From assembly GCA_032718475.1 (NCBI GenBank), contig JAUCBJ010000047.1, forward strand, positions 1 through 43,412: a DNA stretch of 43,412 nt, in the 5' to 3' direction. Source of the DNA: Nemertoderma westbladi. Taxonomy: Eukaryota; Animalia; Xenacoelomorpha. Below the pieces are notes generated by a model. It was not told where the DNA came from and ran no database searches. It worked only from the letters and a program-made list of their open reading frames with translations. Position 1 is the stretch's first letter; every line of letters begins with the position of its first letter. This document shows, in pieces, positions 8,958 to 30,530 of the stretch. The position numbers were made by a program, and so were the translations under genes.

Positions 8958-10214
8958 ATGGATGTTATAGTTAATCAAAAAATATCGAACTTAGATATTG
9001 GTATCCACCACGAAGAGATTGCTGAATCTCACGCCCGCGGGATAATGGCTATTCATCTCAAAATATGTCGGCAGGTTAATATTAGTAACTTTTCCGTAAT
9101 GAGCAAAGAATTCGCATTGCAAATTACCCTGAAACTCAACAACCTTTCCCATAAATCAAAAGTAATCAAAGTGGACGCAAGTCAGACAGGCGAGTCGCAT
9201 GCGAAACAAAATATTCTGGAAATGGTATGTTTCGACGAGGTTAAACACATCCCCGTTGATGTGAGTAACTTTTACGAGGACGAAATTAACTTTGTCACGT
9301 TGACGGTGATGGGACAAGAAGAGGAAGATGTGCCGCGAGTGATAGGATCGGCTCGGTTTCATCTTTACGACGCGGTTAAAATATCCTTCCTCTCTCGGAG
9401 CCACGAACTGCGACGCAAGAAGATGGTGACCGGCTACCTCGACGCTGACATCGTGTTCCGTTACGGCACTTTCGGTTTTGGATTCAGTGAGATGCTAGAA
9501 GATCAGCAACGACCCATCTCCGATCAACTCGCCAACTCCTTGTTCCTTAGGATAAGACCACCCACCCCCAACTTCACTGTCCCCCACATCGGGGTGCTTC
9601 TTAGCTACCCCAAGGAGCATCCGCCATTCTTGCCTTTCACTGAAAAGGTTAGTCTTGTCTCACCCGACCATATGTTGCCGATTGGGCCCTTTGCGGATGA
9701 GGATTGGCTGGAAGGGGATAAATGTAAGATGGAACATTTAATGAAGAAGAGCGGGCCGAGATTGTCACACTTGTTCTCTGAGTATCAGAAGTTGCCCTAC
9801 AGGAAACAACGTAATCGTTTCATACGGAATCTATTGCGGATGCAAACCGAAGATGATGTTATCATGTTGGGGGCTTTGAAGGATCCCGGTAAGGCGCAGC
9901 CGGATGCGGAACCGGATACCGGAAAGACTGAAAATCAGTGGTTGATTCCGGCTCTGGATATGACCAACTCGAGCGCGGGATCCAGCGAATCGATCGTATT
10001 GTCCCCGTCTCCCCATTTCATGAACGCGTCCTACGCTGAGCGCGGAGTGTTGGGTCGGTGGTGGAACGGCTTCACCTCCTTCTGTTGTCCGTGGAGGTCG
10101 CGGACAGTGGAAACTCCGTATTCGATGATGACAATGATGAAGACGCCCGCGACAGTTGCGGACGAAGGGATGCCCACTATCCCAAAGATCAGGGTCAGTA
10201 AAACGAGGGGATAG
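8958..10214 (+). CDS. C2CD6: Single-ORF C2-domain protein of the C2CD6/ALS2CR11 (CatSper targeting subunit tau) family, 418 aa
   Basis: Motifs GIMAIHLKICR, FDEVKH, IGSARFHLYD, FRYGTFGFGFS, SLFLRIRPP and EHPPFL occur in the same order as the recalled ALS2CR11 motifs (AVHIK.CR, FDEVKY, LGS..VHLYE, FSYGNFGYGFS, SMFMNIAPP, EYPAFL). GC content is higher than the flanks. Confidence 0.75.
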   Translation: MDVIVNQKISNLDIGIHHEEIAESHARGIMAIHLKICRQVNISNFSVMSKEFALQITLKLNNLSHKSKVIKVDASQTGESHAKQNILEMVCFDEVKHIPVDVSNFYEDEINFVTLTVMGQEEEDVPRVIGSARFHLYDAVKISFLSRSHELRRKKMVTGYLDADIVFRYGTFGFGFSEMLEDQQRPISDQLANSLFLRIRPPTPNFTVPHIGVLLSYPKEHPPFLPFTEKVSLVSPDHMLPIGPFADEDWLEGDKCKMEHLMKKSGPRLSHLFSEYQKLPYRKQRNRFIRNLLRMQTEDDVIMLGALKDPGKAQPDAEPDTGKTENQWLIPALDMTNSSAGSSESIVLSPSPHFMNASYAERGVLGRWWNGFTSFCCPWRSRTVETPYSMMTMMKTPATVADEGMPTIPKIRVSKTRG

Positions 10215-10732
10215 TACCGTAAATTATTTGTGTGAATATTAAATTAATAGCAACTATCGATATTAACAGAAGATTCAAAATTAATTTTGTGTACTGTACA
10301 GCATTCATCAACTGATGATTGATTTAATGTATTCAAAGACCTTGGAGGAATGTGAGCGATGATTATTTATTGAAATTGAAAATGGAAACTTTTCTAGAGA
10401 ATGATGTGTATTTTGAGAAATAATAAGAACGAATCCTCCAGATAGGTTTACCGCATTACATTTTTGAGGATAAGAAACATAATCCGTTTACTCAATCAAT
10501 AAATGGTTTTATTTGATTGTTAGAGGGTGTTAATATTCCATTTGTAAAGAAGACTTCTGTATTCTAACTGATGGTTACTACTGCTATTTGTTATTTCAAC
10601 TGGCGAATGTTTAAAACTATAATACTCTAAACTAAATGCAATAACAACAGTCAACACGCGCAATTAGCAATTTTAATTTAGTATTATTTATTAATAATTA
10701 GTTCAGAGTTTCAATTACAACCATCCCTGAGG

Positions 10733-12300
10733 CGAGTAAGGGTTGGAAGAGTCCTGGTATCAGTGTCCAAGTAGTGTGGAGTGAGGGTGGGAAGAGTCAA
10801 GGTATCAGTGTCCAAGTAGTGTGGAGTGAGGATGGGATGAGTGCAGGTATCAGTGTACAAGTAGTCTGGAGTGAGGGTGGGATGAGTGCAGGTATCAGTG
10901 TCCAAGTAGTGTGGAGTGAGGGTGGGATGAGTGCAGGTATCAGTGTCCAAGTAGTCTGGAGTGAGGGTGGGATGAGTGCAGGTATCAGTGTCCAAGTAGT
11001 GTGGAGTGAGGATGGGATGAGTGCAGGTATCAGTGTCCAAGTAGTGTGGAGTGTGGGTGGGAAGAGTCAAGGTATCAGTGTCCAAGTAGTGTGGAGTGAG
11101 GGTGGGATGAGTGCAGGCATCAGTGTCCAAGTAGTGTGGAGTGAGGATGGGATGAGTGCAGGTATCAGTGTCCAAGTAGTGTGGAGTGTGGGTGGGAAGA
11201 GTCAAGGTATCAGTGTCCAAGTAGTGTGGAGTGAGGGTGGGATGAGTGCAGGTATCAGTGTCCAAGTAGTGTGGAGTGAGGATGGGATGAGTGCAGGTAT
11301 CAGTGTACAAGTAGTCTGGAGTGAGGGTGGGATGAGTGCAGGTATCAGTGTCCAAGTAGTGTGGAGTGAGGGTGGGATGAGTGCAGGTATCAGTGTCCAA
11401 GTAGTCTGGAGTGAGGGTGGGATGAGTGCAGGTATCAGTGTCCAAGTAGTGTGGAGTGAGGATGGGATGAGTGCAGGTATCAGTGTCCAAGTAGTATGGA
11501 GTGAAGGTGGGAAGAGTCCAGGTATCAGTGTCCAAATATTGTGGAGTGATGGTGGGAAGAGTCCAGGTATCAGTGTCCAAGTAGTGTGGAGTGAGGGCGG
11601 GAAGAGTCCAGGTATCAGTGTCCAAGAAGTGTGGAGTGAGGGTGGGAATAGTCCAGGTATCAGTGTCCGAGTAGTGTGGAGTGAGGTTGGGAAGAGTCCA
11701 GGTATCAGTGTCCAAGTAGTGTGGAGTGTGGGTGGGAAGAGTCCAGGTATAAGTGTCCAAGAAGTGTGGAGTGAGGGTGGGAAGAGTCCAGGTATCAGTG
11801 TCCAAGTAGTGTGGAGTGAGGGTGGGAAGAGTCCAGGTATCAGTGTCCAAGAAGTGTGGAGTGAGGGTGGGAAGAGTCCAGGTATCAGTGTCCAAGTAGT
11901 GTGGAGTGAGGTTGGGAAGAGTCCAGGTATCAGTTAGTCCATGTAGTGTGGAGTGAGGATGGGAAGAGTCCAGGTATCAGTTAGTCCATGTAGTGTGGGG
12001 TGAGGATGGGAAGAGTCCAGGTATCAGTTAGTCCATGTAGTGTGGAGTGAGGATGGGAAGAGTCCAGGTATCAGTGTCCATGTAGTTTGGACTGAGGATG
12101 GGAAGAGTCCAGGTATCAGTTAGTCCATGTAGTGTGGGGTGAGGATGGGAAGAGTCCAGGTATTAGTGTCCATGTAGTGTGGACTGAGGATGGGAAGAGT
12201 CAAGGTATCAGTGTTCCAGTAGTGTGGAGGGATGGTGGGAAGAGTCCAGGAATCAGTGTCCAAGTAGTGTGGGGTGAGGGTGGGATAAGAGTTGAGGTAT
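10733..12300. repeat. 45-bp minisatellite, about 34 copies (some 48-bp variants at the right end)
   Basis: Unit ggtatcagtgtccaagtagtgtggagtgagggtgggatgagtgca; variant units cluster by position within the array. Confidence 0.97.
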
Positions 12301-13485
12301 CACTATCTTAGCCCTAGCCATATTAACAGTCCCTCTCTTGAGTTTGAAATTGTTTTCTCTCGCATGGAGGACTTTTAAAAACTGGCTTAGTGTTCCTCGT
12401 GAACGATGAATCTTATTTGACAATAGGATTTCCACGAGCCATGTAGTACTAGCTATTGTACTTATAGTACTAGGTATAGTGCTGGCTAGTATGAGGCACC
12501 GCACCTGCCTTACTTTAACCCTGCTAAGTGACTTTCTTATGGCAATCCCAACTCTACAATGCTATGCATGGGAATTTACCGCTTGTCCATTTCAAGGAGT
12601 TGTGATTTCCCCTGAGGAAGAGTTTCTCAGTCCTGGAAAAATTGGTGACTCATCCTTTTCCGTGGCGGTATCCTTTGATGTAGGACCGGCTGTATCATTA
12701 GTGTTAGGGCGGTTGCCTGCCTGTCACAACTTATGAGCACTCGCGTAAAATCCGCAATGCCAATGGGCTGGCAATTTCGTTTTTGGGTAGCAGAGTGTCC
12801 CCACCTACACTATACACCGACGTCAGCTTAAAAAAGGTTGAATAATTTAATCAGATCCGGTGTGAAAAACATCACGGCACCACCCCTGAAACCTTGCTCA
12901 AGGTATTCTTTTCGGTTATCTCGCAGACTATTGGAAATTGTATTACTGTAATAAATCATCTGATTAATTAGCCATACCGGGCAGTTACGAGTGTCGATTC
13001 CAGGGGCACTGAAAGATTAACATCAAAATTATTTATGTAGTTTTTCATCAGTTATTATTTTCGTTTTGTTACAAATTTTGGAAAAACTATAAATAAACTC
13101 GATGCAAAGTTGACTTTACAATGTTATATTATTTATATTGCTCTACCATAACGAACCATTTGAAACTCTGTAACGCGCTCCTTTTCACACAAGTATATAA
13201 ATTTGGTACAATGAAATAATTGTTGTTGTTACTAAAAGCAGTGGTTTATTTTCTTTATATACTCGGTATACTTTACATTTTAGATAAAAATTAATATATA
13301 TATATATATACACATTATTAGAAAGTAGTACACTGTAGATAATTGTATTATTACTAGTAGTAGCTTTTAATCTACAATAAATTAATTCAGTACTATATTA
13401 ATTATTATCATATGTTCAAGGAATTGTAGAATACTGAAATATATCAACATTCTAAAAGTCTATGCCTGTTGCCAATAATCGGATA

Positions 13486-13647
13486 GTGTCGCAAATGGAC
13501 CGCAAGTGAAATAATGTTTCGTTTATTGTTTTGGTTAGGAAACATCGCCACTGTAAGCTGTTCCTTTCCTTAAATGTTTTAAATTAAATATATTTTTTAA
13601 ATGCACTAAACATATAAGTGCTGTGCTTGCGGTCATTTTGTGCCATT
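13486..13647. mobile_element. Short MITE-like dispersed repeat (copy 1)
   Basis: Imperfect terminal inverted repeats gtcgcaaatggaccgcaag / cttgcggtcattttgtgcc; a related copy is at 26923-27079. Confidence 0.65.
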
Positions 13648-14822
13648 AAAACTCCCAATAATAAATCTCTAACATACAACAATATAGACGAGTAATTTGT
13701 TTGATTAAATATAATAATATATAATGTATTTTATTATATTGTCTATATCAGAAGACATAAATAGATAACAATTAATGGTTATTTTAGCAATAATAGTAAT
13801 CAGCACAATAATACTAGGTAATGAGGTACAAATTAACGATATTTGGGGACATTGTATTCAATGATGTATTTCAGCCATTGAGAATTAAATTCAAATTCAC
13901 GAGATAAGTTCCACCGGCTGAACTGAAGAAATATTTCAAAAACTTGCCAAAAATTCCATTTCCCAAACATTTTTCGCTTTCTTTTGAATTTTCACTCACA
14001 CGTCCCATACACCGCCTACATTGAAGGTAGGCGTACTTTGGAAGTGAGAAGTTTTTATTTTTATTTATAGAAATTATTAAGAATTCTGGAACAATAATTA
14101 CGTATTCGCTAGGACATTTTTACTTACACTTACAACAGAGAGTGAGTGTGTCACGCCATGCAACTTAGCCAATTAAAATTCATAAAGAGACTCGCTTTTT
14201 ATAATTTCATATTTTGACATGGAACCATCCACCCACGCAACTGCGTACACAGTTAGCACGTTGCAGTGTTAGTTGCTGGACGCATTAGCGTCATTAATCC
14301 AGCGCCCACGCACTCATTGCACTCAGGCGCACGCTGAGACAAAAGCTGGGTGCTAATCCTACGCCCACGCACCCACATACACGATACAGGCTCTAGGATA
14401 TTGTAATCAAAGATTCGGCTGAAAGGCATCTAATTAAAGGTAATGGGATGCTTTATAGCTTAAAGAGACAGCTTAAAAGCGGCAAAGATAAATTCTTGAA
14501 AAAAAATTGAATACCTTTGATGAGGAGAGGTATTATTATAAACATTGAATACAAAGTGTTGACTCTCAACAAATATCAAATAATTATTTGAGGACGTTAA
14601 ATATGTAAGTATACATCATTATTGACAAGTCTAATCATATTAAATTTTCTCAACTAAATTAAATTGTATCTTTCAATTATTACATAACTAATTTGCAACC
14701 AATGAACAGACTGCAGTCTGGTGCACATTGCATATTGAAATTATGGAATTAATAGATAGAGCACGTTTTGGAAAAAATTATCTTTATTTCATAGTAACTA
14801 ACTATATCCTTGTGGGGCGAGC

Positions 14823-15155
14823 CACGAAGTGAGCGAAGCCTTAGCATATGGGTGCCATTGGCGAGTTGTCTGTCGTCGTCGTCGTCGTCGTCGTCGTCTG
14901 TCGTCGTCGTCTGTCGTCGTCGTCTGTCGTCGTAAATTTTTGAACGCTAATAACTCGGTTATTCCTTGATGAAATTAATCGAAACTTGGTATGTATGTAG
15001 TCCGTCAAAAGTTTAGAAAGAATCTGAAGTTTCGTCAAAAACGAACTAACGCAACGAGGCACAAGATGAGGACGAGTATTGTGTTGAAGACTTCTGACTA
15101 ACACCAGACAACTCGTTAATGGTACCCATATGCTAAAGGCTTTGCTCACTTCGTG
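14823..15155. mobile_element. Non-autonomous element with about 37-bp inverted repeats and an internal (GTC)n microsatellite (MITE or Helentron/DINE-like)
   Basis: cacgaagtgagcgaagccttagcatatgggtgccatt (14823-14859) is the near-perfect reverse complement of 15118-15155. A (GTC)n tract lies at about 14870-14932. Confidence 0.8.
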
Positions 15156-16790
15156 CTGCGCGAAGACACCACGAACGTGTTTTAACTGTGAGAGAGGAAT
15201 GTGGAGGGAATACCGTACCGCGAAATCCACACATTAATACATTTGTAAATGTAAGCAGATGTTTCTGTCAAGCTTTTGTTAGATCTTCAGTTTTAATTCC
15301 GAACATATTTTATAAAGTAACATTGTGTGATCCGTCCAAAAAAAACCGTACAATTTTCAATAAAATTTTCAATATTAGTATAATATAATTTTCAATAAAA
15401 ATTAATGAATGACCTGCATTTCTTCAATTGAAATGTGCGGACACGATTATGTCTCACCATCACACAAAACGTGGCTTTTTGTTACATACAGTTTATTAAT
15501 TATCACAACATCATAATTATTATCTACACAGTAACGATATAAAATTTGCTGTACAAATAAATTTACCCGCGATATATAATTATTCTAAAACTATCAAATA
15601 TAAATGTACAAAATAATAATTAAAAACTGCACATCTCAATTATTGTTGGCATCACAAACTTGACGTTCTTCTATTACTTACTACATGGCTGATCCGTGGT
15701 CAATTAATTTCATGTATAATTATTGTTTTGGTGACCCGGTGACTCGGTGACAAATGAAATTAACTGAAAGTAATTGGCCCGGTCAGCCTCAGTACCGGAA
15801 TACATACTTATACGTTTATTGATTAGCTCCCAAATAGTTAGTAACAAGTTTGCGTTTACTCATCAGAGTTAATAGATTATATACTACATTGGTCATTTAC
15901 CTAAGCTAATACATACAGTAGAAATACGGGGTTTATAATATACGTTTAGATTCTTAAAAATAAAAATTAATTATTAATAGTTAGATACGCGTTAGGCTGA
16001 CAATGTGACACTTGTATTATTGCAGCAATTCAATTATTAACAAATAAATATAGCGATTTGATTACTAAATACCATTTTAACGATCAATTAACATCAGTCA
16101 AACCAAAACGATATCCATAATTACCAATTAATTTCCAACAAAAGTTAATCATCAATCTTGTCCTGTCCGTGTGGTACAAAAAGTGCAGTTTTCTTGTGGT
16201 GACGGACATAATAAATATTGGATGTAGTTCGTGTTACTCAAAGTGACAATAATAATTATTATTAATTGTTATACAGCGATTCCTTGTTATATAGACTTAC
16301 TAACAGCCCGTTCAAAATTTAATTTAATTTTTTAAATGTACATAAAGCTTATTATCAGTAGTTTGTAAACCATTTAGTAATCGTTCGAGTTATTTAATTG
16401 GAAGCCAAATAACAGTATTCTAAGTAGGCCTACAGATATGATAATTTGCTTTAGAAGAATATAAGTTTTTAAATTTAAAAAGTGCTTAAAAAAATAATTT
16501 CAATTAATCCCATATTTATTTTTTTGTAAATTCGGCCAACAAACGGACTGCATTGTGTAAGACTCCGGAATTGCTGTAAAAGTTCATTTTTGTCGTTGTA
16601 TAAATAAACATCAGTTATCTTTACTGCCTATTAAGTTGTTTCAAAATATATTAACGCAGTTTTCAGATGAATCACATTTTGTTAGACACCCGAGGTGTGT
16701 GGAGCTGACGGCTATCTTTTTCACTGCCGTTTATCCTCGTAACCATGGTTATAGGTATTTCATTGTTAGAGGTCACCAATAGAAAGTTAT

Positions 16791-16991
16791 TCAATTATTT
16801 TGTGGACTGCTGCTGGTTGCCAGGTAGCATTGGCGTAAATCTTTGGACGGTTTCCAGCGACACTTCCCGTGCGTCCGACTGGCTTTGCAGACCGAGTGTT
16901 GGCTTTGGCATTCCCCTCTCACCGTATCTTTGATTACACATCGCTTGGTATGGCCTCTTCTGTGGCACTTTGAATCTTCGCAGTTAACAAC
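16791..16991 (-). CDS. TIMP: TIMP coding exon 5 (last; C-terminal domain and stop)
   Basis: Acceptor tgtttcag|GTT; encodes VVNCEDSKC...KRC...GECQSQHSVC...GKCRW...RQC...*, matching the TIMP C-domain cysteine pattern. Confidence 0.92.
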   Translation of the reverse strand, partial: VVNCEDSKCHRRGHTKRCVIKDTVRGECQSQHSVCKASRTHGKCRWKPSKDLRQCYLATSSSPQNN

Positions 16992-17026
16992 CTGAAACAA
17001 TTTATAACATTCTGACTTTCATTCGG

Positions 17027-17252
17027 GTGAGTACAAAACAAAGATCAAAGACCCAAAGATCCAAAGACCTGTACAAAACACATGTGTTAACTTTCGTTTA
17101 TTGTTTTGTCTCCCCAACACACCTCTGTAACCTGCTCCTTTACTAACCTGCTCCTTTAAATGACAATGTGACCTAACGCTCTTTGGGACCTAACGCGACT
17201 TTACCTCTTTGTTTTGTACAGGACTGGTGTTGAGTCTTTGAGTTGTACTCAC
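17027..17252. mobile_element. MITE-like element in TIMP intron 4
   Basis: Inverted ends gtgagtacaa / ttgtactcac and an inner inverted pair cctgtacaaaaca / tgttttgtacagg. Confidence 0.6.
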
Positions 17253-17426
17253 TTCTGTCATTCTGTCAATTTATTGCGGGTGAGTTTTAAAGAGTAAGTA
17301 GCTTCAGTCTAATTAGTAATTTAATTGCTTATTTAAAAAATATAATTCCATTGTACTAAGCATTTTTTATTTTTTTTTCATATTTGCTCTAAAACAGTCC
17401 TAATATTTCTTTGTATTCCTACATAC

Positions 17427-17551
17427 CTGGCATTCACAGCTCGACTTGTATTTGCTTCTAAATCCTCGCCTTTGTGTTGCGGAAAGTTTCTTCCATTCTT
17501 TGTACCAATTGCAACTGGAAATATCCATCCCGCCGTTCGGGGTTTGTTCAC
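17427..17551 (-). CDS. TIMP: TIMP coding exon 4
   Basis: ttttag|GT...CAG|gtatgt; encodes (G)EQTPNGGMDISSCNWYKEWKKLSATQRRGFRSKYKSSCECQ, matching the TIMP C.W...W..LS..QR.G....Y...C.C pattern; phases fit the neighbours. Confidence 0.93.
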
Positions 17552-17723
17552 CTAAAAGTTCGTAAAATTTACTAATATAAGTAATAATTCTCGATTAATT
17601 TAGTTATAAGTTGTCTATAATAGTTATATTTAGTATTACTATATACCGAGCTATTGTTAAATAATTTATTAACACTTTTGTTACTCCAATCTTTATGTAG
17701 GCCTGTTTGTAGTTTGTGCTAAC

Positions 17724-17850
17724 CTGTCAGTATATATGTGTGGTTTTTCTTCAGATCTACTGCACATGATGTATTTTCTTCACTGGACGCAAATAGTTTG
17801 AAATGTTTTCGTTTTTGTTTGCTGACTCTTCCTTTGTACACAGTTTTAAC
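17724..17850 (-). CDS. TIMP: TIMP coding exon 3
   Basis: tttaacag|GTT...ACA G|gttagc; encodes VKTVYKG...SSEENTSCAVDLKKNHTYILTG (K.YKG, C.V.L and Y..TG motifs). Confidence 0.93.
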
Positions 17851-17902
17851 CTGTTAAATAAATAAGTTTCAGATATTTTCATTGTCAATTCGCATATAAT
17901 TG

Positions 17903-18099
17903 GCCCATGTGAAGAATAACAGAAGGGCTGAATCTAACCAAAACAATAAACGAATTAGTATATGTACAGGTTATAAGACAGAAATAAGCGCTATAAAACA
18001 CTTAATAACGATAAATTGAAAAAAATAAAAAATCTTCATATATAAAATTCCAATAAAAAGTCGACCGAAAAGTGAAATCCTGGTATTCTTCACATGGGC
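17903..18099. mobile_element. MITE-like element in TIMP intron 2
   Basis: Perfect 16-bp inverted repeats gcccatgtgaagaata / tattcttcacatgggc. The internal aatctaaccaaaacaataa motif recurs at about 41322. Confidence 0.7.
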
Positions 18100-18176
18100 G
18101 ATAATTGATAAATTTATTCAATTATTAAATAAAGATAAAGAATTATTAACTCCGATTGTTTAAACTATAAACTCAC

Positions 18177-18319
18177 TCTGACAACGTAGGTATCGAGTGT
18201 CAACTTGTCATCACGTTCTCGGAACTTCGTCAGTCCCCCTGATTTGTTATCATAAAATGTGTTGTCGTAAAATCTTCCGTAGAAACCCGATAACGAGTTA
18301 ATAATTTTCGCCTTCACCA
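18177..18319 (-). CDS. TIMP: TIMP coding exon 2
   Basis: ttttctag|TG...AGA|gtgagt; encodes VVKAKII...DTYVVR (equivalent of VIRAK); phase 1 in and phase 0 out fit the neighbouring exons. Confidence 0.9.
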
Positions 18320-19563
18320 CTAGAAAAAAAAACAAAATAATAAGTAAATATGTTTGTATGTTTTTAATCACAAAAAATTTAATCACAATCTTAGATGAAA
18401 ATCACAGTACAATCGTATCGAGGTTAAAGTTTTTTTAAACGTCACATGTAACGATGGATACCGGTAATGAAATGTATTTCCTATTATATTCCTATGAATA
18501 TGGTGGAATTGAAATTTGTCGATATATATTCGTATGATGTAATTCGTCGATGTATATATATATATATATTACGTCTTATCATCAACGAGCAACAATATTA
18601 ATAACAACAACATCGACCTTCAACTGCATCTCTCAAAACAACTGATGCATGGAATTTTAATTCACTACGTTTATGCCACGAAATAAATTAAAACTTTTCC
18701 ACACAGAATTTCACTAACTCCATGACAAATTTCCATCGGCTCTTTGCCTGCTTAATTCAGCAGACAGCGGTAAGGAGTTCCAACATGGATGAGTCATCAG
18801 ACTGGGTCTCTTGGGAGCATCCCGTGAGGGGGAATTCAATTGGGGAGTTGTTGCTTATTAATCATTCGTGGGACACTGCAGGTGCCCGTGTGTGCCTACC
18901 GCGGGATTAGTTAGTCTGAGTACGTGGTAGTACGAGCGCTTGCTAGTTTACGATAACGCAAATCTTTGCTTCTCATGTTCAACTAAAATCAGTGTATTTT
19001 TAAAGGGTTTTGTATTTCCATGAAGCCACTTTGTGAAATCAATCAATAGTGAACGGAATAGATAACGCGGGATCTCTATGGGCCGCGGCAACATCAAGGA
19101 CTCACGGCCACCTTGAGATTCCCAGGGATGTAAGATTCGCGGCTTACTCCACTCCACCTGCAACCTGCACTTCCAGAGATCGCTATATAGTAACTAAAAG
19201 ACAAGCTGTTCCCAACCGCAATTGCGGTTTTTCGCGTTAATTAAATCCTAAACGCGACATCCCAACGTTCAAACTATCATTGATTCGTGGAAGCGACAAT
19301 CAATACCTTTGTTGTGGTTGACTTGTCTTGTCTTGTCTCACTTGTCTTGTATTTCTGATGTTCGGGTTGGGTTGACGTCGATAACTGAATAAGAAGTCCA
19401 GGGTACGGAAACTACACACACCCCTGGGCGATTTAGGAAAAACCATGAATGAGTTTGTATTTGTGTAGTTTTATTTATGTTTTAACCTTATAATATTGAC
19501 AGTTCTCTATGGAACTGTTAATGTAATGTAACGATGCTTTTCGTGGCTTAAGCATACTCATAC

Positions 19564-19880
19564 GATAAAGATTTATGACCAGTAAGGGTCTTGAGCCTCT
19601 GCTATTATTAGTTTACCATAACGCTGCTATATTAAACACAATATATAAATAAAATTTAATTAAAAATAATTCAAAGAATAAAAAGATATATACAAATGTA
19701 TTTGTATATATATTTGTTTGTTTGGCTTTGAATTGTTTTTAATTAAATTTTAATTATATATTGTTTAATAATATATAACCACTGAAGATGGGCGGGAAGT
19801 GTGAAATAGCTATATATGGTAAACTAATAGTATTTTATATTAGCCGTGGCTCAAGACCTTTCTCGCCATAAATATTTATC
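19564..19880. mobile_element. About 320-bp foldback (long imperfect inverted repeat) element in TIMP intron 1
   Basis: gataaagatttatgaccagtaagggtcttgagcctctgcta pairs with the reverse complement of the right end. Inner arms (aaaatttaattaaaaataattcaaag / ctttgaattgtttttaattaaaatttt) also pair, centred near 19698. Confidence 0.8.
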
Positions 19881-21844
19881 TATGGGACTGTAAAATTGTA
19901 TCTCCACCCCACCCAGATAAAGTCTGGCGTGCGCAATAAAATTAGTTGCTATGGTGCAGCTAGTGTCCGACCTTCAAGTGTATGAAGTACATTAGTAGGT
20001 ATCTTCGCATTAAGTTATAAAAATGTACTGGTCTAACTATAAAAATACTAAATAAAAATAATGACTATAATTTATGACGACAATAAATGCAATTGAACAA
20101 TACCAACCATAGACCACGTCAGTAACATATAAATATAAGTACCGGACCGGTAGTATTATTAACTTGAAGCGGGAAAAAAAGTGCGAAGTTATTACATTGT
20201 CATGAAATATTATGTCATAAACTACGATCATGATCATTACTGTCCGAAAACATCACAACAGGGCTCATCGGCGATTATTATGAAAATATATAATATAATA
20301 AATAAATAATAAAATAATAATAATAAATTAATTAAGTAGAAAATAATGAATTAGTACCCCAAAAGAGGTCAAATCTTTTAGTCTTTCCTTTTATATTTTT
20401 TCACCTTCAATATTAAGGGTAAGGAGCATTTTGCTGCTTTTTTATTGTTACAATAAATTAATATACTACAAGTTCAATATAATATACGAAACAATAGTAA
20501 ACTAATTTCCGTTTTCCTTTGTGTCCACTGTCAGACCTTCTGTCCCCTCAGACGTATTATTACAACGGCATTGTTTCATTATGATATGGAATGATCTCTC
20601 GGCTTGGAGGTATTCATAGATTGTTTCTGGTATGATAAGAATTTCTTTGTTTCCTAAATAACTAACGGTTTATTACGTAACATACCGCAACTTTGCGGTA
20701 ATTAGTACATGATATTGTGTAAGAGCATATAAAAGGAATGCTAAGGCATGGACATTGAACAATTGGTATACTCAGGTAAAATTAGCATTATTTGGCTCAG
20801 GTTTGTTATGAGGTTACTCGTGGGAAAGCATTTAGAGAAATTACTGTGATATTATCCAGGGTCTCACAAATATTAGGCCTACTATTTCCTATGCCATCAT
20901 TTACTGAAGACTTGTCACGATTATAATGTGTCAGCATTGCCGTGGATTGATTACTTCCCTCGGCTTATGACTTTTATTTCCGGCCAGACCGCGCCCTGCC
21001 CAACCCCGTCTCTATTATTATAGTATTGAGTTTATTTGTTTATTGCCTTACAGTTTCTATGAAATAATTTAAAAATAGCGTGTGATGTTCTATCTGTGCC
21101 AGAGAGAAGGTAGGCGCTTCTTGTAACGGAGATGATATAATAATGAATAAAAAAATAATGAATAATAATTAATATGTTATTATGTTCTAATTGCCAAAAG
21201 CATACATAATGAATATTGTTTAATCAGATTCTCCTGTTGATTTTTCCCTGTTGTGTAAATCCTAACATAAATAGTTCTGATAAACTTTCACTTTCTCGAT
21301 CACCTTATCTTGAGTAGAGTACCGGTACCATTGAAGCTGATAAACTTTCATTTTCCCAATCACGTTGTCTTTAGTACCGGTACCGATACCATTCAGCACT
21401 TTTCTTCAGATATAAACTTCTGAGGTACGGTAGTAGTGCGCCGTGAACCGGTAGTGTCGGAAGAGTAGGTTGGCCTATTAAATTTAACATTTACTGTAGG
21501 CCTACCGGTATTGTGTCCCATTTTGAGAGTGTAATTGATTACATAGGCAGATAGGTCCTACCGAATCAGGGAATGCATAGAATAATTCAAAATATACCGG
21601 TAGGCTCTAGGCCTACCTCTGTCCGGTATGCGTGCAGATGGGTGGGAAAGATAAGTCGTATTCTCGTATAAGCATACAAAATTGGGAATATTGTGTAGTA
21701 GAGATAGGCTACGGTATCTATCATCAACGGCTATTATTGTCGGTAGCATTAATACGAATATCATAGCGATTTCTTTAGTTTGGTATCATTAGGTATTAGT
21801 CCGTTGCATTCCTTACCAGCAAAAACATTCACTAAGACTGCACT

Positions 21845-22876
21845 ATGGCCTCAAAGCACGTGGACCAGGTTGTGGCAGATAATTTTGCAGATGACAGTGA
21901 CGAAGAATCTTTCTTCCAAGACATCGATCTGCTGCAACAGCACGGAATCAACGTACAAGACATTAAAAAGCTCAAACAATCCGGAATCTGCACCATTCGT
22001 GGCATACACATGACCACTCGGAAAAAACTGTGCCTCATTAAAGGCATATCCGAAGCAAAAATGGAAAAAATTAAGGAAGCCGCATCTAAACTGTCAAATA
22101 GCGGCTTCTGCACCGCACTGGAATACAACGTAAAACGTCAACAAGTCTTCCACATCTCCACAGGGAGCGGTGAGTTAGACAAACTCCTGGGAGGAGGGAT
22201 TGAGAGCCAAGCTATTACTGAGGTCTTTGGGGAGTTTCGAACCGGTAAGACGCAGCTGTCGCACACGTTGTGCGTGACGTCACAGCTCCCGGGTGCCGGT
22301 GACTACTCTGGGGGGAAGGTTGTGTTTATAGACACGGAGAACACCTTCCGACCGGATAGGCTGGTGGATATTGCGAACCGATTTAATCTTGACGCTGACG
22401 CCATGCTTGAGAACGTGCTGTACTCCCGGGCCTACACGAGCGAGCACCAATTCGAGTTGCTGGACTGCGTAGCCACTAAACTACACGAGGAGCCCGGGAT
22501 ATTTAAATTGGTGATCGTTGATTCCGTGATGGCTTTGTTTCGTGTTGATTTCTCAGGTCGGGGGGAGCTGGCGGATAGGCAGCAGAAGTTGGCGCAGTTG
22601 CTGAGTAGGTTGCAGAAGATCTCTGAAGAGTACAACGTCGCGGTTTTTATAACCAATCAGATGACAGCAGACCCGGGTGCTGCCCTCAGCTTCCAGGCCG
22701 ATCCAAAGAAGCCGATTGGTGGTCACATCTTGGCGCACGCGTCAACCGTTCGCGTTATGTTGCGTAAGGGCCGTGGGGAGGTGAGGATAGCTAAGATATA
22801 CGACAGTCCCAATCTCGCTGAGACTGAGGCCACCTTCGCTATAATGGCGGGGGGAGTGTCGGATGCGAAGGAGTAG
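21845..22876 (+). CDS. DMC1: Meiotic recombinase DMC1, full length 343 aa, no coding introns
   Basis: N-terminal [25 protein letters not shown], Walker A GEFRTGKT, Walker B LVIVDS, DMC1-type [19 protein letters not shown] and [18 protein letters not shown] (RAD51 has ELSARQMHL and GGNIIAHAS). Confidence 0.98.
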
Positions 22877-23244
22877 CCCCTCCTAACGATAGGAACTAGT
22901 AGCTCCTACTACTAGTGCTGGTGGAAAGTTTGGTTAACTCTATATTTAATTTTAGTGTAATTTATTGAAATTTTTATTTTATGGTAATTAATGTGTTTGT
23001 TTTCTGTTTATTAAATCCTTATTTTGGTTATACAATGTTATCATATCATAAAGATACAATATCGTTCAATTAAAAAGGTATTATTCTCACTAATTAAGAT
23101 CTTATGCGACTTGCAATTGCAAATTGTAGACCAAGACCACAATACTTGGAATTTGTATTACACTCTATTATAATACTTTGAATTAAAAACAATTATAACT
23201 CATTAGCAATAATAAGTACGAGTAAGTATTAGCGTTTATCTTAC

Positions 23245-23380
23245 CTAATGGCGAGGTACAGTAGGCAACTTGTGGATGCGCAATTGGCGGACATTGGCAG
23301 GCGTAGCAGAGTCTGTTACTCAACCACAGCGCCATACAGAGCACACTAACTGCCTCCCTTCTGGTCCTCATGTACATCAT
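23245..23380 (-). CDS. TIMP: TIMP coding exon 1 (signal peptide and mature N-terminus); the five exons join to 732 nt / 243 aa
   Basis: Hydrophobic leader followed by CQCPPIAHPQVAYC (TIMP signature C-x-C...HPQ..[FY]C); donor G|gtaaga. The start Met is uncertain among three nearby ATGs. Confidence 0.94.
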
Positions 23381-26300
23381 CCTGGTAGATCCAAGGTTCT
23401 TGATTTAATCCAATTGGGCCGATGGAAAATATACACAATAGAGAACTTCATTAACTAATTGCTTATTAAATTAAGATTGAGTATTAATTATATGAGACAT
23501 TGTAAATGTTACAAGCAATAGCTTCGTCTTTTTATGGTATCCCTACCGTAAAATTTTGTTGGGAATACCGCTTAAACGGTTCTTTTAAGTTTAACTTCTT
23601 CCATGTTACATACCAATCTAGCTCATCAACAAAAGGATAGCAAATATAGCGCTAAACGCCCATTGGTTGACAGTGCGGAGATGGTAACTTGCTATTGGTC
23701 AGTTGAGGTGGGGTTATTTATAATAGTTTCTTACTTGGCTGGAAAAATATGGTGGGAATGTTAGTTACAATGGGGAACCCCACCATACCTATGTATGTAT
23801 TTATATTCCACAGTGGGAGGCCTTACTAACTTAATATTCATTCATATTAATTATTACGTATTTTGGTTTTATACTGAACAATAATATTGCTTTAATGTTG
23901 CCGCCACAGGTTGGTCTAAATGCTCAACACATTAGTCCCATATTTATTACCAAAGAGGGTGTCTATTGACAATGGGCGGCGTACTTTGATGTCCCATATG
24001 AAAGTTTAGCCGACATATAATAGGCCCGCCCCTATAATTATTCATACCATTGAAGTATGGGCCCGATTAACTGGTAATTAGCACACGTGGGGTTAATTAC
24101 CGCATTGTCTTCAATGAGGAATTATTTTTTACAAACTTGAGTTGGCTGCAACTGCACTGCAAACCAAAGGGTCTATTCAGGTTTAGTTGTATATAATGTT
24201 AATATAGTAAACACTCATTCACACGTTCACCAAAACGTACACCCTTTGACCTTTTTAATATCTATACGACCTCTTATTGTACTCATTTTTTTGCACACCC
24301 ATTATTCGGCCAACATCGCAAGGTCGCCTCGGCAACGCAACTCAGACACAGTTCGCTGTCAGCCATGGAATTCGCGATTTCTTCTGTAACCAGAAATTTT
24401 AGTGAAAAACCTGATAGGTATAACTGAACCAATTTAAAATTCGGGAATTTCTCGGATTGAATTGAAAATATTTCCGAGACTATATTTCACTTTATTGTTT
24501 GGTTTGATTTTGAGTGATCCACATATTTTTCATTTTTATGTATGTTTTTAAAGCATGGTATATTTGAAACTTCATCCCTTTGTTTATTTATTATGTTGTT
24601 TCTACTGCACCATATGTGTATGTAAGTATGTTGTTCTGACTCAGTATCCAAATGGATTGAGTGGTATGTGTCCTTCTGTTACAACACAAATTCCACCTGT
24701 GGCACATGTCGTTCTTGAAACAAAGCGACATGCTGCTGTCAGGGGGTCCATCATATATGTCGTTTTAACTTTTCATATCTCGTAACGAGAAATACTCTGT
24801 AAATGTCGTTTTTACACAATAAATTTGAACATTTTCTGATTCTATTCTTTCTGATTCGACTGCAGCAAACCTAATTTTCTAAATTTTATGGTATATGTAG
24901 TTCTAATTCTTTACCGACGTTATCCATACATTCTGTATTTAAACACATTCAAAATGTATCTCTAATTCATTTATATACACTATGCAACAATGTGTATCAA
25001 CAATGTCCTGACAACTCGTGTCAGCTGAAGAAAAACGTATGTATATACGGTACCATTCATATATCTGTCTTTTCATTACCAATTGCTGAAACAGGGGAAA
25101 GGTACAAGTTCCAGAAGCGGTAGTAAAACTGTAAAGCTGGTCACCGATTTACAGATCTGATTCCGGACACAAGTTGTCCGGACATTAATAATTATTCGGA
25201 AGCGAGTTGTTTGTATCAATAAATTCATGTGTTCCCATTTACTCGTGAAATATGTTTTTGTGCTCTTACGATATACCATTTCAAATGTAACGTTTGTTTT
25301 ATTAAATGCCAGCTTCACAAGCACTGCCTGGTTTTTTTGTTTAGCGCGATATACTAACTGAAAATGCACATAATGACATAGATTCGTACACACACAAATA
25401 CCATATACTTTTAATTAATATTAAAATCTCATGATCGAACTTGGGGAGGTTTTAAAATACTACCGTCAAGGACTAGGGCAACCCGTTGAAAGATATAACC
25501 AACGATTGGTTATTATGTTAGGAATGAGAAGGGAATGCCTTATTCATTAATTTCTTCCTTCCATCACATATTATGATTATGAATCACGACCATATGGCGG
25601 TTGACTGCTTCCCAGGAATGTTTGTTATTAATTGGTTGTGTTGTTACTATGTTACTCATGATGTAACAACATAATGCTGCAAAAGTACCAGATGTACTAT
25701 AATTATATACCATATTCTCCTTTTGCTAAATACCAAATGCAAAAATAGTCTGGCAGATATATTTTTCATTGAACCTTGCTTGGGATTATAATAGTAAATG
25801 TTGTTTAAGATTGCTGTTTATGCAATGTTATGCTTTTGAATCTAATTTTAAAATTAATTACACTGTATAAAACATCAATATCTTTAAGATATAGCACACT
25901 TTATAACTTGAAGCAGGGCTGTTCCCATTGGAATAATAGTGAGAGAAAACGTTCTGGAAATCACCCTTGAAAATCGTATTGCTTTTGTATATAAAGTCAT
26001 CCGGTGTATATATAATTTGGTTACTTTAAGGAAAACCATCAAAGATGCCAGTTGTGCATCACTCGGATTATTGATGACAACAATATTACCGGAATCAGTT
26101 AAAGACATCTACTATAACATAACATATTTCTATGCAAGGTAAACGTTATAATATCTGCCAAACTAAATGGATGGAGATTTAATGAATTTATCTTCCAAAC
26201 AATCAATTGTTCGTTTAGGCCCGGTTCATACTAGCTAAATCGTCTAGCAACTAATTCGTTTAGACCCTAATGCAAGCAATCCTTGCACGTGTGACCGGGC

Positions 26301-26385
26301 CATTCAAGTCAATACATACTATCTGTTTTACACAAATATTTTCTGTCTAATTAACTAAATGTTTCTATATTTTACTATTTTGCAG

Positions 26386-26591
26386 TTAATCACACCAAAG
26401 TTTCCGATTGTAGTAAAGATTGGACATGCTAACGGTGGGGTAGGTAAGGTGAAGGTGAACACGCATCATGAGTTCCAGGACATCGCCAGTGTAGTGGCAG
26501 TAGCCAATACCTACTGCACAACTGAACCATTTATCGAAAGCAAATACGATATTCGTATCTTTAAGATCGGGGGATCCTACAAGGCTTTTAT
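26386..26591 (+). CDS. SYN: Synapsin internal exon (domain C, ATP-grasp)
   Basis: tttgcag|TTA...AT|gtaagt; encodes [69 protein letters not shown]. Confidence 0.97.
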
Positions 26592-26922
26592 GTAAGTTGT
26601 TATTTTAGTTGGGGTAAATTGCTATTATATTAGTTAGTTATATTAATTATTGCTGGTCTAATATTTTCCGGTGGAGAAAAGGATGACCTCTCACACAATA
26701 TAATATTGAAAAGTTGCCGCTTTAATCTGTAATTCCGTAGATATGATATTGTCACTCTAAAATACATCCTCCGACCTCGAATTTACATTATTGCATAAGA
26801 AATTTATTTGAACAAATTTATTTCCGGTATACCAAATCATTTTGCACCTCTCAGCACAACACCTACATTTTCATATGATAGTTGCAAAAATTGATCGCAG
26901 GTAAAAAAAAACAGTGCTCTCC

Positions 26923-27079
26923 TGCGCAAACTGGCCGCAAGTGAAATATAGTTTCGATTATTGTTTTGGTTAAAAAAAACACTTCAACTGTAAATTTATC
27001 CTTTCCCTTAATGTTTAAAAATAGAGTGAATTACTTTTTGAGAACACATAGTTGGTGTTTGTGGTCATTTTGCGACATT
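26923..27079. mobile_element. Short MITE-like dispersed repeat (copy 2, related to 13486-13647)
   Basis: Shares ccgcaagtgaaat...tttcg.ttattgttttggtta...actgtaa...cctttcc...ggtcattttg with copy 1. Confidence 0.65.
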
Positions 27080-27154
27080 AACTCACAATTTTATGTAAAC
27101 CGCCATCACCATTATTTTTCACTTCGCTACCAATATTCACTACACATATTATAG

Positions 27155-27335
27155 GAGGACTAGCGTGTCACCAGGTAACTGGAAAGCCAACACGGGATCG
27201 GCTATGCTCGAACAAATACAAATGACGGACCAGTACTACTTCTGGGTCAACGAAGTTTCTAAACTTTTTGGCGGACTCGATATTTGCGGAGTTTCTGCGC
27301 TCAAAGGTCGCGATGGCCGCGACTATATTATTGAG
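27155..27335 (+). CDS. SYN: Synapsin internal exon (domain C)
   Basis: atag|G AGG ACT...GAG|gttagt; encodes [60 protein letters not shown]. Confidence 0.97.
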
Positions 27336-27782
27336 GTTAGTTGTATTTACATGTCTTTTAAAGACCATTTCTGATACTTGGCGTATTTTATATGAAGATT
27401 GGGGGATATGGAAGAGTGGGAAGATGGTATATACTCAACGGGAATAGCGGCTAGGTTGGTTCCTCTTTCAGTGCCATTAGTAGGCCTACTTTGTCGTAGG
27501 ATTAGTCGCTTGTTGATTTCTATACAAACGGTTAGCGATAATTCCCCGTCCCAAGTATTGCTGATTGTCCGACCAGGGAACGTAACACAAACCTCTTTCT
27601 GTAACAGAGTGGGTTTAGTGAAGGACCAGGTTATAGATTTCCTAGGTGGGAGAAACCTAAACAATAAACGATAGTTATGAATTTATGCCTTAATATTTTT
27701 AAGGTCAAAAAGATAAAAATCTAGTGACAGAAATTGTAAATTGATTTATTCTATCTAAGTACATTAATTAAATATAAATTGG

Positions 27783-30530
27783 TTATATCTTTTCGTTTGC
27801 CACTGTAATTTCCCCCTCCTGCTGGTACTTTGCTTTGTCGATGGCTTGAACACGCCGCACCTCCGCCGGTTGTGTCAGACTGTAACCGCCACCTACATAA
27901 CGCCGGGACCCGGTTCGCTGAATCAACAACTCTTTGTGAGGAATAGAGTTATAACTGATGGCATCCTTTTTCAATTTGATATCGTAAAACTTTTTTTTGA
28001 CAAGATTGAGTTTGTGAGACATTTCATTATTACGTGTATCACTTTTCTGTAAAGTCGTTTCGCACATCTGTAATTCTGCTGCCAAAGCCTTTATATGACC
28101 GTTCTTCTTTCTCATTTTCATCTGGTGTTCTCTTAATATGTTCTCTTTTTGTGGTATTTTTGCAAGAACCTGTTGCAAACCCGCTATCATTGTATCCTTT
28201 TCCTGTAAATATATTTCTAATCGGAGAACATCATCGGTTTTTTTGATCAATCTCTTTTGGAGTCTGCTAGTTTTTTTTATTTGCTCGTAAGTTGACGGAT
28301 CTGCTCCTTTTAGTTTCCTCCATCGGTGGAGGTTTAATGGATCCTTTAGAGCTTGCTCCATCGCTCCACATCTTCTGCGTTCATTCAATAATTCCACCTG
28401 CCCTTGCCTCACCTCCAATCTGAGGTTGTCAGCTTTAACCATGTCCTTTTCGGCGATGGATTTTTCTATTCGTAGTTTCTTGATCTCGACCTTCAACAAA
28501 CGAATATCTTCTAACCGCGTCTTGTAATCTATTTCCCCTGTATCCATAATTTTTTGTTGCAGTTTGACTTTCTCATGGAATAAAGCTATGGCCTCGTTTT
28601 GACGTATTAACTTTGTTCCCAATAAATCTCTTTCTGACATTAATTTGTCTAGTTCAGCCTTTCGACTTACTGAATCCCGCTTTAAAGATTCTATAATTGA
28701 CATAAGTTCATTTTTCTCGATATCTTTGTCCTGCAGGGCGAGTTTCCGTTCTTCAGATTGGTTTGTGATTCTCTGCAGTTCTCTACGTATCGCTTCTTTC
28801 TCATTTTCAATTCTGTGCAATTCTTTGCTCTCATTCTCCAATGCGTTCTCTTGTGCGATAACTTCTTCTTTCAACTGGTCGATTTGATGGTCCATGGAAT
28901 TTAACTTACGTTCGTGTTCCGTTATCACATCTTTCGCCGCTATTAGGTTTTTATTGTATAGGTTTCTATCCTGTCTGACGTCTTCATACAACTTTTCCTG
29001 AACCCTAAATTTCGCGTCTGCTTCTGCTAATTTCTTATTGTAATCGCTAATCTGATTTTCTTTAATTTTTATATTTTCCGTATACTTAAGTAACTTTTGA
29101 TTAATTTCGTTATAATCATTTCGACAATTGTTTCTTTCGTTCTCAAGTTTTAGCATTATTTTGGCCTCTTTTTGTGCTTGTGTAATGTGGTTTTTAATTT
29201 CTGTTTCCAAATTCTTTGTTGTTGATTCAATTAGCTTTCTAATTCCCGTTTGTTTTTCCACTTCATTCGTTAGATTTAGTATAGTTTTTGTTAGCGTGTC
29301 CCGCTCTTTAATAAGATCATGAGTTAATTTCTTTTCATCCTCAACTTCTTTTCTTATAAATTCTTCTGTCTTTTTATTACTTGTATTCAAAGCTTTGAGA
29401 CGTTCCGTTTCATTTTCAAGATTTTCCTTGTCCTCTTCTAAACAAGTCACTCTTCGCAATGCACTATCTCTCTCTTTTACCACTTTTTGGTTCTCTTGAT
29501 TTAGTCTATGTATGACATCGTCTTTAACTTTTAAACTGGCTGCTTTCACGTTATTTTCAGAGTTCAATGCGTCGTTTATGATCAACTGATTTTCATATTC
29601 AACGTTTTGTTTGGTGTATCTGTTACTCAAAACCTCTAATTCTCTGGTAACTTTCTCCAGGTTGAATTTCGTTTCCCTGTAAAGTTGCTCCATCTTGGAT
29701 AATTCAGATATATTCTTCTCGTTTTGAATTTTAGTTTCTTTCAAATCTCTCGAGGTTGTCTCAACCACTTGTTTCGACTGTTTTAAATCATTCTCACATT
29801 TTTCCCTCCGTCGTTTTTCCCTTAGAAATTCGTTAAACTTACCCTGCACTTCGTGTTTTAATTCACCGATGTCAAACTCATGCTCCTCATTTATCGCCTG
29901 CAGTGTTGTTTGCTCAGTCTTAGCTAATGCTAACAGATTCGTGTACTTCTCCACACTGTCGTTGAGGGAGGCATTCTCCAAAACTAATTCGTCAGTCTTT
30001 TGTTGAAATTTGTTAATATCTTCGGAGGCTGCTTCCGATAGTTTCCCCCCTTTATCAACAACAGTTCTGAGACGATGTATCTCGAGTTTCATGTTATTCA
30101 CAGATTCCTTGGCTTGCATCTCCTTTTCGTTTGCGGCGTCTACCATCTTCCACGCATTCTGGATTTCTTTCTTCAATATCAACACTGTATCTCGATCTTT
30201 ATCAGATAGCATCTGGATGGTTTTCATCTTAATAGTGTTCGCAATGATATCACCATTAAGCTCTTTACATTTCTCAAGAACTGTACGTTCTGATTTGTGA
30301 CTTTTCTTTAAAGCCTTTAAAAGTTTCTCATATTCAACTTTGTATTTTTCGACTCCCTTCTCACTCATCAAAGAATGAAGAACATCTTCAAATTCCCGTT
30401 CGAGATTTTGTGTAACTTCATCAGCGACTTCTACAGGCAGATTGTCTGTATCTTCCGCAATAACCTCTAATTTTTCTTTGCTAACCACTTTGGCGTCGTC
30501 GCTCAGACTATTCTTTATGTAGTTATTCAT
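27783..30530 (-). CDS. CFAP58: Cilia- and flagella-associated protein 58 (CCDC147) family coiled-coil protein, 915 aa, no coding introns
   Basis: Motifs YKVEYEKLLKALKKSH, IQNAWKMVDAA, YEDVRQDRNLYNKNL, SERDLLGTKLIRQNE, RLEDIRLLKVEIKKLR, PLNLHRWRKLKGADP and RYVGGGY. Minus-strand AATAAA at 27745-27750. Confidence 0.92.
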   Translation of the reverse strand: MNNYIKNSLSDDAKVVSKEKLEVIAEDTDNLPVEVADEVTQNLEREFEDVLHSLMSEKGVEKYKVEYEKLLKALKKSHKSERTVLEKCKELNGDIIANTIKMKTIQMLSDKDRDTVLILKKEIQNAWKMVDAANEKEMQAKESVNNMKLEIHRLRTVVDKGGKLSEAASEDINKFQQKTDELVLENASLNDSVEKYTNLLALAKTEQTTLQAINEEHEFDIGELKHEVQGKFNEFLREKRRREKCENDLKQSKQVVETTSRDLKETKIQNEKNISELSKMEQLYRETKFNLEKVTRELEVLSNRYTKQNVEYENQLIINDALNSENNVKAASLKVKDDVIHRLNQENQKVVKERDSALRRVTCLEEDKENLENETERLKALNTSNKKTEEFIRKEVEDEKKLTHDLIKERDTLTKTILNLTNEVEKQTGIRKLIESTTKNLETEIKNHITQAQKEAKIMLKLENERNNCRNDYNEINQKLLKYTENIKIKENQISDYNKKLAEADAKFRVQEKLYEDVRQDRNLYNKNLIAAKDVITEHERKLNSMDHQIDQLKEEVIAQENALENESKELHRIENEKEAIRRELQRITNQSEERKLALQDKDIEKNELMSIIESLKRDSVSRKAELDKLMSERDLLGTKLIRQNEAIALFHEKVKLQQKIMDTGEIDYKTRLEDIRLLKVEIKKLRIEKSIAEKDMVKADNLRLEVRQGQVELLNERRRCGAMEQALKDPLNLHRWRKLKGADPSTYEQIKKTSRLQKRLIKKTDDVLRLEIYLQEKDTMIAGLQQVLAKIPQKENILREHQMKMRKKNGHIKALAAELQMCETTLQKSDTRNNEMSHKLNLVKKKFYDIKLKKDAISYNSIPHKELLIQRTGSRRYVGGGYSLTQPAEVRRVQAIDKAKYQQEGEITVANEKI

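Follow-up and report, generated by a model that had tools for sequence, protein, structure and literature searches.

Intron-free genes of meiotic and flagellar families in the synapsin-TIMP locus of Nemertoderma westbladi

The window analysed here, meaning the whole stretch of 43,412 nt of contig JAUCBJ010000047.1, contained no N bases. Three intact ORFs without coding introns, of 418, 343 and 915 aa, were found across 21.6 kb of the locus formed by the genes for synapsin and TIMP (Table 1). The original prediction was correct on these ORFs, and also on the retention of introns by synapsin and TIMP, which presented GT-AG borders and spliced in frame without stops. It had also placed all three ORFs inside one neuronal gene; this held for CFAP58, which lies between synapsin exons, whereas the C2CD6-like ORF had synapsin exons on one side only within the window.

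Table 1. Positions of the single-ORF genes and of the host exons in the window
Feature	Position	Strand	Description
C2CD6/CatSper-tau (CTSRT) family single-ORF gene	8958..10214	+	418 aa; PF15729
TIMP exon 5 (last coding)	16794..16991	-	Cys-rich; AG acceptor, reading frame runs to the stop; no Pfam TIMP match alone
TIMP exon 4	17427..17551	-	splice sites; Pfam TIMP E 8e-11, above cut-off
TIMP exon 3	17724..17850	-	splice sites; weak Pfam NTR match, E 0.023
TIMP exon 2	18177..18319	-	phase-matched exon scan, in frame; no Pfam match alone
DMC1 single-ORF gene	21845..22876	+	343 aa; in TIMP intron 1; antisense to TIMP, sense to synapsin
TIMP exon 1	23245..23380	-	leader and N-terminal Cys-X-Cys; phase-1 GTAAG donor; weak Pfam TIMP match, profile positions 2-17, E 0.13
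Synapsin first exon in window	26386..26591	+	206 nt, ATP-binding domain; Pfam Synapsin_C E 1.4e-30
Synapsin exon, 5' border of CFAP58-hosting intron	27155..27335	+	181 nt
CFAP58 single-ORF gene, strongly diverged	27783..30530	-	915 aa; antisense in synapsin intron
Synapsin exon, 3' border of CFAP58-hosting intron	31620..31738	+	119 nt
Synapsin Pro/Gln-rich exon	32186..32724	+	
Synapsin last coding exon (domain E)	39431..39606	+	

Synapsin was represented in the window by five exons on the + strand, with at least four introns kept. Its best match was amphioxus (77% over one exon), and identity of its core was 62-69% with 17 of the 18 homologues compared and 47% with the remaining partial row, the values between phyla being 65-76%. 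Exons for the N-terminal half were sought across the whole window and none was found (best score 0.6 bits vs. 32-85 bits for held-out arthropod controls), so the 5' exons should precede base 1 of the window if the gene is not broken. TIMP displayed five coding exons on the - strand with four introns kept, and a search of the window for a second TIMP found none. TIMP itself is likely to lie inside synapsin, and the C2CD6-like gene, sense to synapsin, is probably located within the same TIMP-hosting intron. Minisatellites and repeat fragments, the latter presumably LINE-like, were present in the introns hosting the three genes. Hosting introns can be very long at other synapsin-TIMP loci, since PMC2825198 gives a span of ~340 kb for the sea urchin TIMPs, and places the Capitella TIMP ~46 kb past the synapsin start.

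The whole DMC1 ORF was found between consecutive TIMP exons, in an intron of 4925 nt (18320-23244), and DMC1 is thus likely to be doubly nested, within TIMP and with it within synapsin. The position of DMC1 in TIMP intron 1, a point absent from the original prediction, is the most distinctive feature of the locus. Its assignment was clear: the NCBIfam DMC1 score (543.5 bits) exceeded its cut-off of 447.7 whereas that for RAD51 (422.5) stayed below its own (478.05), and matches in PDB reached 589 bits for DMC1 vs. 358 for RAD51. Residues 6-343 aligned without gaps to human DMC1, the protein being full length and colinear with intact nucleotide-binding motifs. A metagenome scan yielded 80 DMC1 loci, the best 80% identical; these were on short contigs, none of them informative on gene order. 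By sequence, DMC1 appears conserved like a sole orthologue.

CFAP58 occupied a synapsin intron of 4284 nt (27336-31619), with the whole ORF between consecutive synapsin exons. The CFAP58 coiled-coil domain was recognised with E 4e-71, and the ORF was colinear over its full length, aligning with the PDB CFAP58 chains over 863 residues; neither DMC1 nor CFAP58 lacks a coding exon, as each is colinear with homologues of full length. Identity to 33 animal homologues, chosen among the 120 matches listed and biased to slowly evolving animals, was 39.5-42.1%, whereas these are 72-86% identical between phyla, so that the protein is below the conservation level of an ordinary orthologue between animal phyla. 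In a quick tree its terminal branch was 10 vs. a median of 0.11. It was about equally far from animal CFAP58 (515-519 bits) and from the algal chain 8GLV (503 bits). The change was graded: 59% of 367 invariant columns were kept vs. 18% of 124 variable ones, with only three small gaps, which shows selective constraint at the level of the alignment, and 41% of otherwise invariant columns were changed. As the homologue set is biased to slow animals, this divergence may also reflect a lineage-wide speed-up of ciliary genes. The known proteins CFAP58/CCDC147 and the paralogues FAP58, FAP189 and MBO2/CCDC146 share the full-length colinear coiled coil of CFAP58 type, and specialisation of paralogues within this group is described for Chlamydomonas (PMC11151096, PMC10266980); the ORF studied here differs from them in being nearly equidistant from animal and algal chains and in its many altered invariant columns.

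The C2CD6-like protein matched Pfam CTSRT (PF15729) with 48.2 bits vs. a cut-off of 24.4 (E 1.8e-12). The match was confined to residues 28-170, and the ORF is therefore only putatively complete. The first match in the Atlas was the CTSRT cluster (0.94, 180 of 256 features), weak as separate evidence with a recognition of 2065, below 2300. Single-sequence models gave pLDDT values of 33 (full length) and 50, and Foldseek rows were mostly C2 domains, none with E <= 0.001. As for relatives, none of the 1651 candidates of the protein search scored, and none of the 56 metagenome pattern matches encoded one. C2CD6/CatSper-tau likewise carries an N-terminal CTSRT (C2-type) domain; mouse C2cd6 has at least 13 exons over ~43 kb (PMC8857959), whereas the gene described here is a single ORF with a putative link to CatSper.

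An in-frame stop was present 6-9 nt upstream of the ATG in each of the three ORFs, and a polyadenylation-signal hexamer followed the stop codon at 24 nt (C2CD6-like), 134 nt (DMC1) and 33 nt (CFAP58). No strong splice acceptor was detected in the 120 nt preceding each of the three ATGs, where the best candidates ranked at percentiles 0.78-0.87 against a null median of 0.84, so that a nearby 5'-UTR intron, trans-splicing and splicing into synapsin are all unsupported. GC at four-fold sites was 0.61 in the C2CD6-like gene, 0.59 in DMC1 and 0.40 in CFAP58 (Fisher P 3e-5 and 2e-4), and codon GC of the ORFs exceeded the intron background of 0.34. The genes seem on sequence grounds to have had different histories, given a diverged CFAP58, a conserved DMC1 and unlike codon GC.

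Vertebrate DMC1 and CFAP58, as well as mouse C2cd6, are multi-exon. The proposal of an RNA-mediated origin is plausible as regards the lack of coding introns and the location of the genes in introns of others, but no retro-hallmark was found to accompany them. Searches at the three ORFs found no poly(A) remnant, no target-site duplication (the longest flanking repeats, of 9 nt, were reached by 84-94% of random intron pairs) and no flanking LTR/TIR or long repeats; the RNA route is consequently argued by intron absence alone. Such hallmarks decay and are mainly useful for young copies (PMC5470649). Taken together, we moderately favour an origin of the three genes as independent, old RNA-derived copies (retrogenes) in long introns, retained by selection, probably for germline jobs. 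Germline mRNAs would have been reverse-transcribed by LINE-type enzymes and inserted into long, repeat-tolerant introns, each gene then relying on a short promoter and a poly(A) signal of its own. The absence of introns may have favoured retention: with hosts on opposite strands, a doubly nested DMC1 necessarily shares its direction with one of them, and the C2CD6-like gene shares that of synapsin, so that splice sites within these genes would interfere with the host. A trace of such a filter was sought within the ORFs, where donor-like and poly(A)-like words were not depleted (P >= 0.40 in 12 of 12 tests). DMC1 would probably perform ordinary meiotic strand exchange, possibly replacing its parent, whereas CFAP58 would likely be a duplicate that diverged fast and took on a specialised role in the axoneme, perhaps that of sperm, with a conserved parent elsewhere.

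It is rather unlikely, although the best of the alternatives, that germline-expressed genes instead lost their introns wholesale and in place by cDNA recombination and were afterwards moved into the locus at the DNA level, all three being sole orthologues and CFAP58 evolving fast with the ciliary genes of the lineage. The 206-nt and 181-nt exons of synapsin match fusions of adjacent human exons, so that two introns have apparently been lost from the gene, as would be compatible with general intron loss. PMC2825198 reports such losses in Ciona, Nematostella, Drosophila or Capitella, and certain invertebrates have many genes with a single exon (2532 of 15,154 in Xenoturbella bocki, a figure that serves only as a baseline; PMC11521371). 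The missing retro-hallmarks and the conservation of DMC1, as expected for a sole orthologue, point the same way. Against this, four introns remain in TIMP and four or more in synapsin, synapsin and DMC1 do not present a strong lineage speed-up, and three DNA moves of single genes without their neighbours are less economical than retroposition.

According to the original prediction, the three genes would further be co-regulated as a spermatogenesis cassette, within a chromatin domain that opens in the germline while synapsin is silent. All three nested protein-coding guests other than TIMP do belong to meiosis or flagellar families, but germline bias of retained retrogenes (PMC5470649) accounts for this common theme without co-regulation. 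Words of 6, 7 and 8 nt common to the three 600-nt upstream regions showed no excess over random intron triples (P = 0.13, 0.19, and 0.41), and no X-box or CRE match was found in these regions. The genes are on differing strands and in different introns, with no head-to-head pair, and differ in codon GC and evolutionary rate. "Male-germline genes" was likewise too narrow a description, as DMC1 works in female as well as male meiosis and human CFAP58, modelled in the axoneme of respiratory cilia (PDB 8J07), serves somatic cilia too. In mammals, anticorrelation of host and nested genes is rare, human pairs being mostly neither correlated nor anticorrelated (PMC11694760). Co-regulation is therefore improbable. 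We are equally doubtful of a bolder picture in which synapsin-TIMP would repeatedly receive and retain germline genes, with the sole DMC1 as a doubly nested retrogene beside a CFAP58 variant restricted to sperm and a subunit that targets CatSper, all opened as one germline chromatin domain with synapsin off, and with other flagellar genes independently recruited to synapsin introns in other phyla. That the ORFs are dead copies, or foreign pieces inserted by an assembly artefact, is very improbable in view of 915, 343 and 418 uninterrupted codons, the graded constraint on CFAP58, codon GC above that of the introns, the absence of N and of long repeats at the ORFs, and flanking host exons that splice in phase.

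Under the retrogene origin that we favour, a conserved pair that is a textbook nested locus has received further guests, among them a core meiotic recombinase inside TIMP. Whatever is transcribed at the DMC1 site would run with one host and against the other, and the locus therefore offers a natural experiment on the means by which nested genes avoid mis-splicing and transcriptional interference. CFAP58, intact in spite of its divergence, is a candidate for an axoneme variant specific to sperm or to a cell type, and through the CTSRT-family gene the range of CatSper-tau-like proteins would come to include an invertebrate. The finding is less surprising in that germline genes without introns, lying within long neuronal introns, were known before as a general pattern, from flies and mammals (compare also amphioxus SYCP1). 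In the literature searched on nested genes at synapsin and TIMP, an arrangement with DMC1 and CFAP58 as guests was not found described, nor was an intronless invertebrate DMC1 among the matches listed, judged by titles and abstract openings.

Comparison with known systems places the locus among them. In the synapsin-TIMP loci of Candiani et al. (2010; PMC2825198), TIMP is likewise antisense in a synapsin intron and has five coding exons; the extra guests given in the available text are only further TIMPs (two in Ciona, 10 in sea urchin), whereas the guests added here are unrelated genes without introns, one of which lies inside TIMP. Amphioxus SYCP1 is similarly a conserved meiotic gene of an invertebrate with a single coding exon at a new address, but it is located beside other genes and the loss of its parent was demonstrated (PMC5803294), while DMC1 lies inside genes and replacement is only proposed. 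Nested genes of Drosophila and mammals are also short, often intronless and often testis-expressed in long host introns; multi-guest hosts occur, and same-strand guests are mostly intronless (PMC5174743 and PMC11694760). Those guests are typically young duplicates, whereas the guests described here belong to ancient conserved families, one of them two levels deep between opposed hosts.

Each of the three guest genes of the original prediction was recovered as a single ORF, with identical coordinates and lengths. An in-frame stop lies 6–9 nt 5' of the ATG in all three, and AATAAA or ATTAAA occurs 24, 134, and 33 nt 3' of the stop codon in the C2CD6-like gene, DMC1, and CFAP58, respectively. The DMC1 ORF scored 543.5 bits with the NCBIfam DMC1 profile (cut-off 447.7) and aligned with human DMC1 without gaps; a RAD51 identity was rejected (NCBIfam RAD51, 422.5 bits, below the cut-off of 478.05). 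The largest ORF encodes a full-length CFAP58-type protein. In the C2CD6-like protein, residues 28–170 match the Pfam CTSRT domain with a score above its cut-off; the top Atlas match was a CTSRT cluster (weak if taken as separate evidence), and none of 1651 candidates scored in a sequence search. Single-sequence fold models of this protein reached pLDDT values of 33 and 50; Foldseek matches were mainly to C2 domains, none with E of 0.001 or lower.

Guest ORFs and mapped coding exons of the two host genes
Feature	Position	Strand	Length	Mapping
C2CD6-like ORF	8958-10214	+	418 aa	
DMC1 ORF	21845-22876	+	343 aa	
CFAP58 ORF	27783-30530	-	915 aa	
Synapsin exon	26386-26591	+		synapsin homologues
Synapsin exon	27155-27335	+		synapsin homologues
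Synapsin exon	31620-31738	+		synapsin homologues
Synapsin exon	32186-32724	+		synapsin homologues
Synapsin exon	39431-39606	+		synapsin homologues
TIMP coding exon 1	23380-23245	-		
TIMP coding exon 2	18319-18177	-		
TIMP coding exon 3	17850-17724	-		
TIMP coding exon 4	17551-17427	-		
TIMP coding exon 5	16991-16794	-		

All introns between the five synapsin exons are GT-AG, and the spliced frame has no internal stop. Spliced TIMP comprises 242 codons with 16 cysteines; taken singly, one of its five exons passed the Pfam TIMP cut-off, two gave weak TIMP or NTR matches, and two none. In these models a synapsin intron of 4284 nt holds CFAP58 in antisense orientation, with 447 and 1089 nt separating it from the exons on either side. 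DMC1 is inside the 4925-nt TIMP intron 1, its end 368 nt from the donor, a location absent from the original prediction. According to PMC2825198, an antisense TIMP inside a synapsin intron is conserved between sea anemone and human, and the hosting intron may reach tens to hundreds of kilobases. On this basis DMC1 very likely sits two levels deep, on the strand opposite to TIMP and on that of synapsin. Profiles of the N-terminal half of synapsin reached at best 0.6 bits across the window (32–85 bits in held-out arthropod controls), so the 5' exons would be located ahead of base 1 if the gene is unbroken. At 6.6 kb past the TIMP stop, the C2CD6-like gene probably shares the long TIMP-hosting synapsin intron. 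In the 27155-27335 synapsin exon a single Pro is inserted into a motif gap-free across all 18 aligned homologues, and the last exon in the window is amphioxus-like.

The three guests apparently share no common history. GC at four-fold sites was 0.61 in the C2CD6-like gene, 0.59 in DMC1, and 0.40 in CFAP58 (intron background 0.34). CFAP58 showed 39.5–42.1% identity to 33 homologues that are 72–86% identical between phyla, a set chosen among 120 listed of 324 matches and biased to slowly evolving animals; its terminal branch in a quick tree was 10 (median 0.11), and it scored about the same against an algal chain (8GLV) as against mammalian chains. It keeps 59% of 367 invariant columns vs. 18% of 124 variable ones and, judged by these residues, is constrained despite its divergence. 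In the same animal, the synapsin core was 62–69% identical to 17 of 18 homologues (47% for one partial row; 65–76% between phyla), and DMC1 shared 80% identity with its best-matching metagenome relative, so the animal is not generally fast, bearing in mind the slow evolvers of the CFAP58 set.

Intact ORFs, families, nesting, and constraint are established. For their origin, three independent, old retropositions are the best-supported reading and a reasonably probable one. The guests would have arrived by an RNA route and would be germline-expressed, and a filter may have favoured intron-free guests running sense to the host; for DMC1 a sense run to some host is unavoidable because its two hosts are opposed. 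Against retroposition, the guest ORFs showed neither a poly(A) remnant nor a target-site duplication or LTR; such marks decay (PMC5470649). Against the filter, none of 12 tests for depletion of splice-donor-like or poly(A)-like words in the ORFs was significant. Amphioxus SYCP1 (PMC5803294) is a precedent for a conserved meiotic gene left only as a single-exon retrogene.

The main rival, intron loss across the lineage followed by DNA-level moves into the locus, seems rather unlikely. By size, the 206-nt and 181-nt synapsin exons match fusions of neighbouring human exons. They resemble intron losses reported in Ciona and others (PMC2825198), which favours this rival.

The co-regulated spermatogenesis cassette also proposed found no support and is quite improbable: 6–8-mers shared by the three upstream regions showed no excess over random intron triples (p 0.13–0.41), X-box or CRE patterns had no matches there, and DMC1 works in both sexes. 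Two further points argue against the cassette: CFAP58 is also a component of respiratory cilia in humans (PDB 8J07), and host and nested genes are rarely anticorrelated in human data (PMC11694760).

The very likely double nesting of DMC1 and the extremely diverged yet intact CFAP58 are most striking; the arrangement is real, its general kind already known. In the literature listings searched, with most subscription journals and supplements S3/S8 of PMC2825198 lying outside them, neither synapsin nor TIMP was described as a host of DMC1, CFAP58, or C2CD6.

CpG observed/expected was about 0.9–1.1 in introns and coding regions of the whole locus, no sign of long-term germline methylation. The presumed long TIMP-hosting intron contains LINE-like fragments and a 45-bp minisatellite. 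Broken LINE-like pieces, endonuclease-like or RT C-terminal-like, lie at 5168-5995 (-), 6833-7630 (-), 12256-12733 (-), and 43050-43412 (+), presumably of CR1/L2 and RTE families; none had a significant Pfam RT or endonuclease match. The minisatellite (10734-12302), directly past the C2CD6-like gene, has long open frames on both strands; those of a 27-bp satellite in the last synapsin intron (36331-38193) are interrupted. An ORF of at least 574 aa (1-1724, -), continuing past the left end of the window, had no match in Pfam, NCBIfam, or Atlas and is possibly a retroelement ORF1 or a fourth nested gene; it bears an Ala/Glu/Lys repeat (390-550), with a 289-bp tandem pair upstream (3044-3617). 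Convergent to the synapsin 3' end, a short ORF of about 63 aa (42388-42579, -), with no above-cut-off Pfam match, has one hydrophobic stretch.
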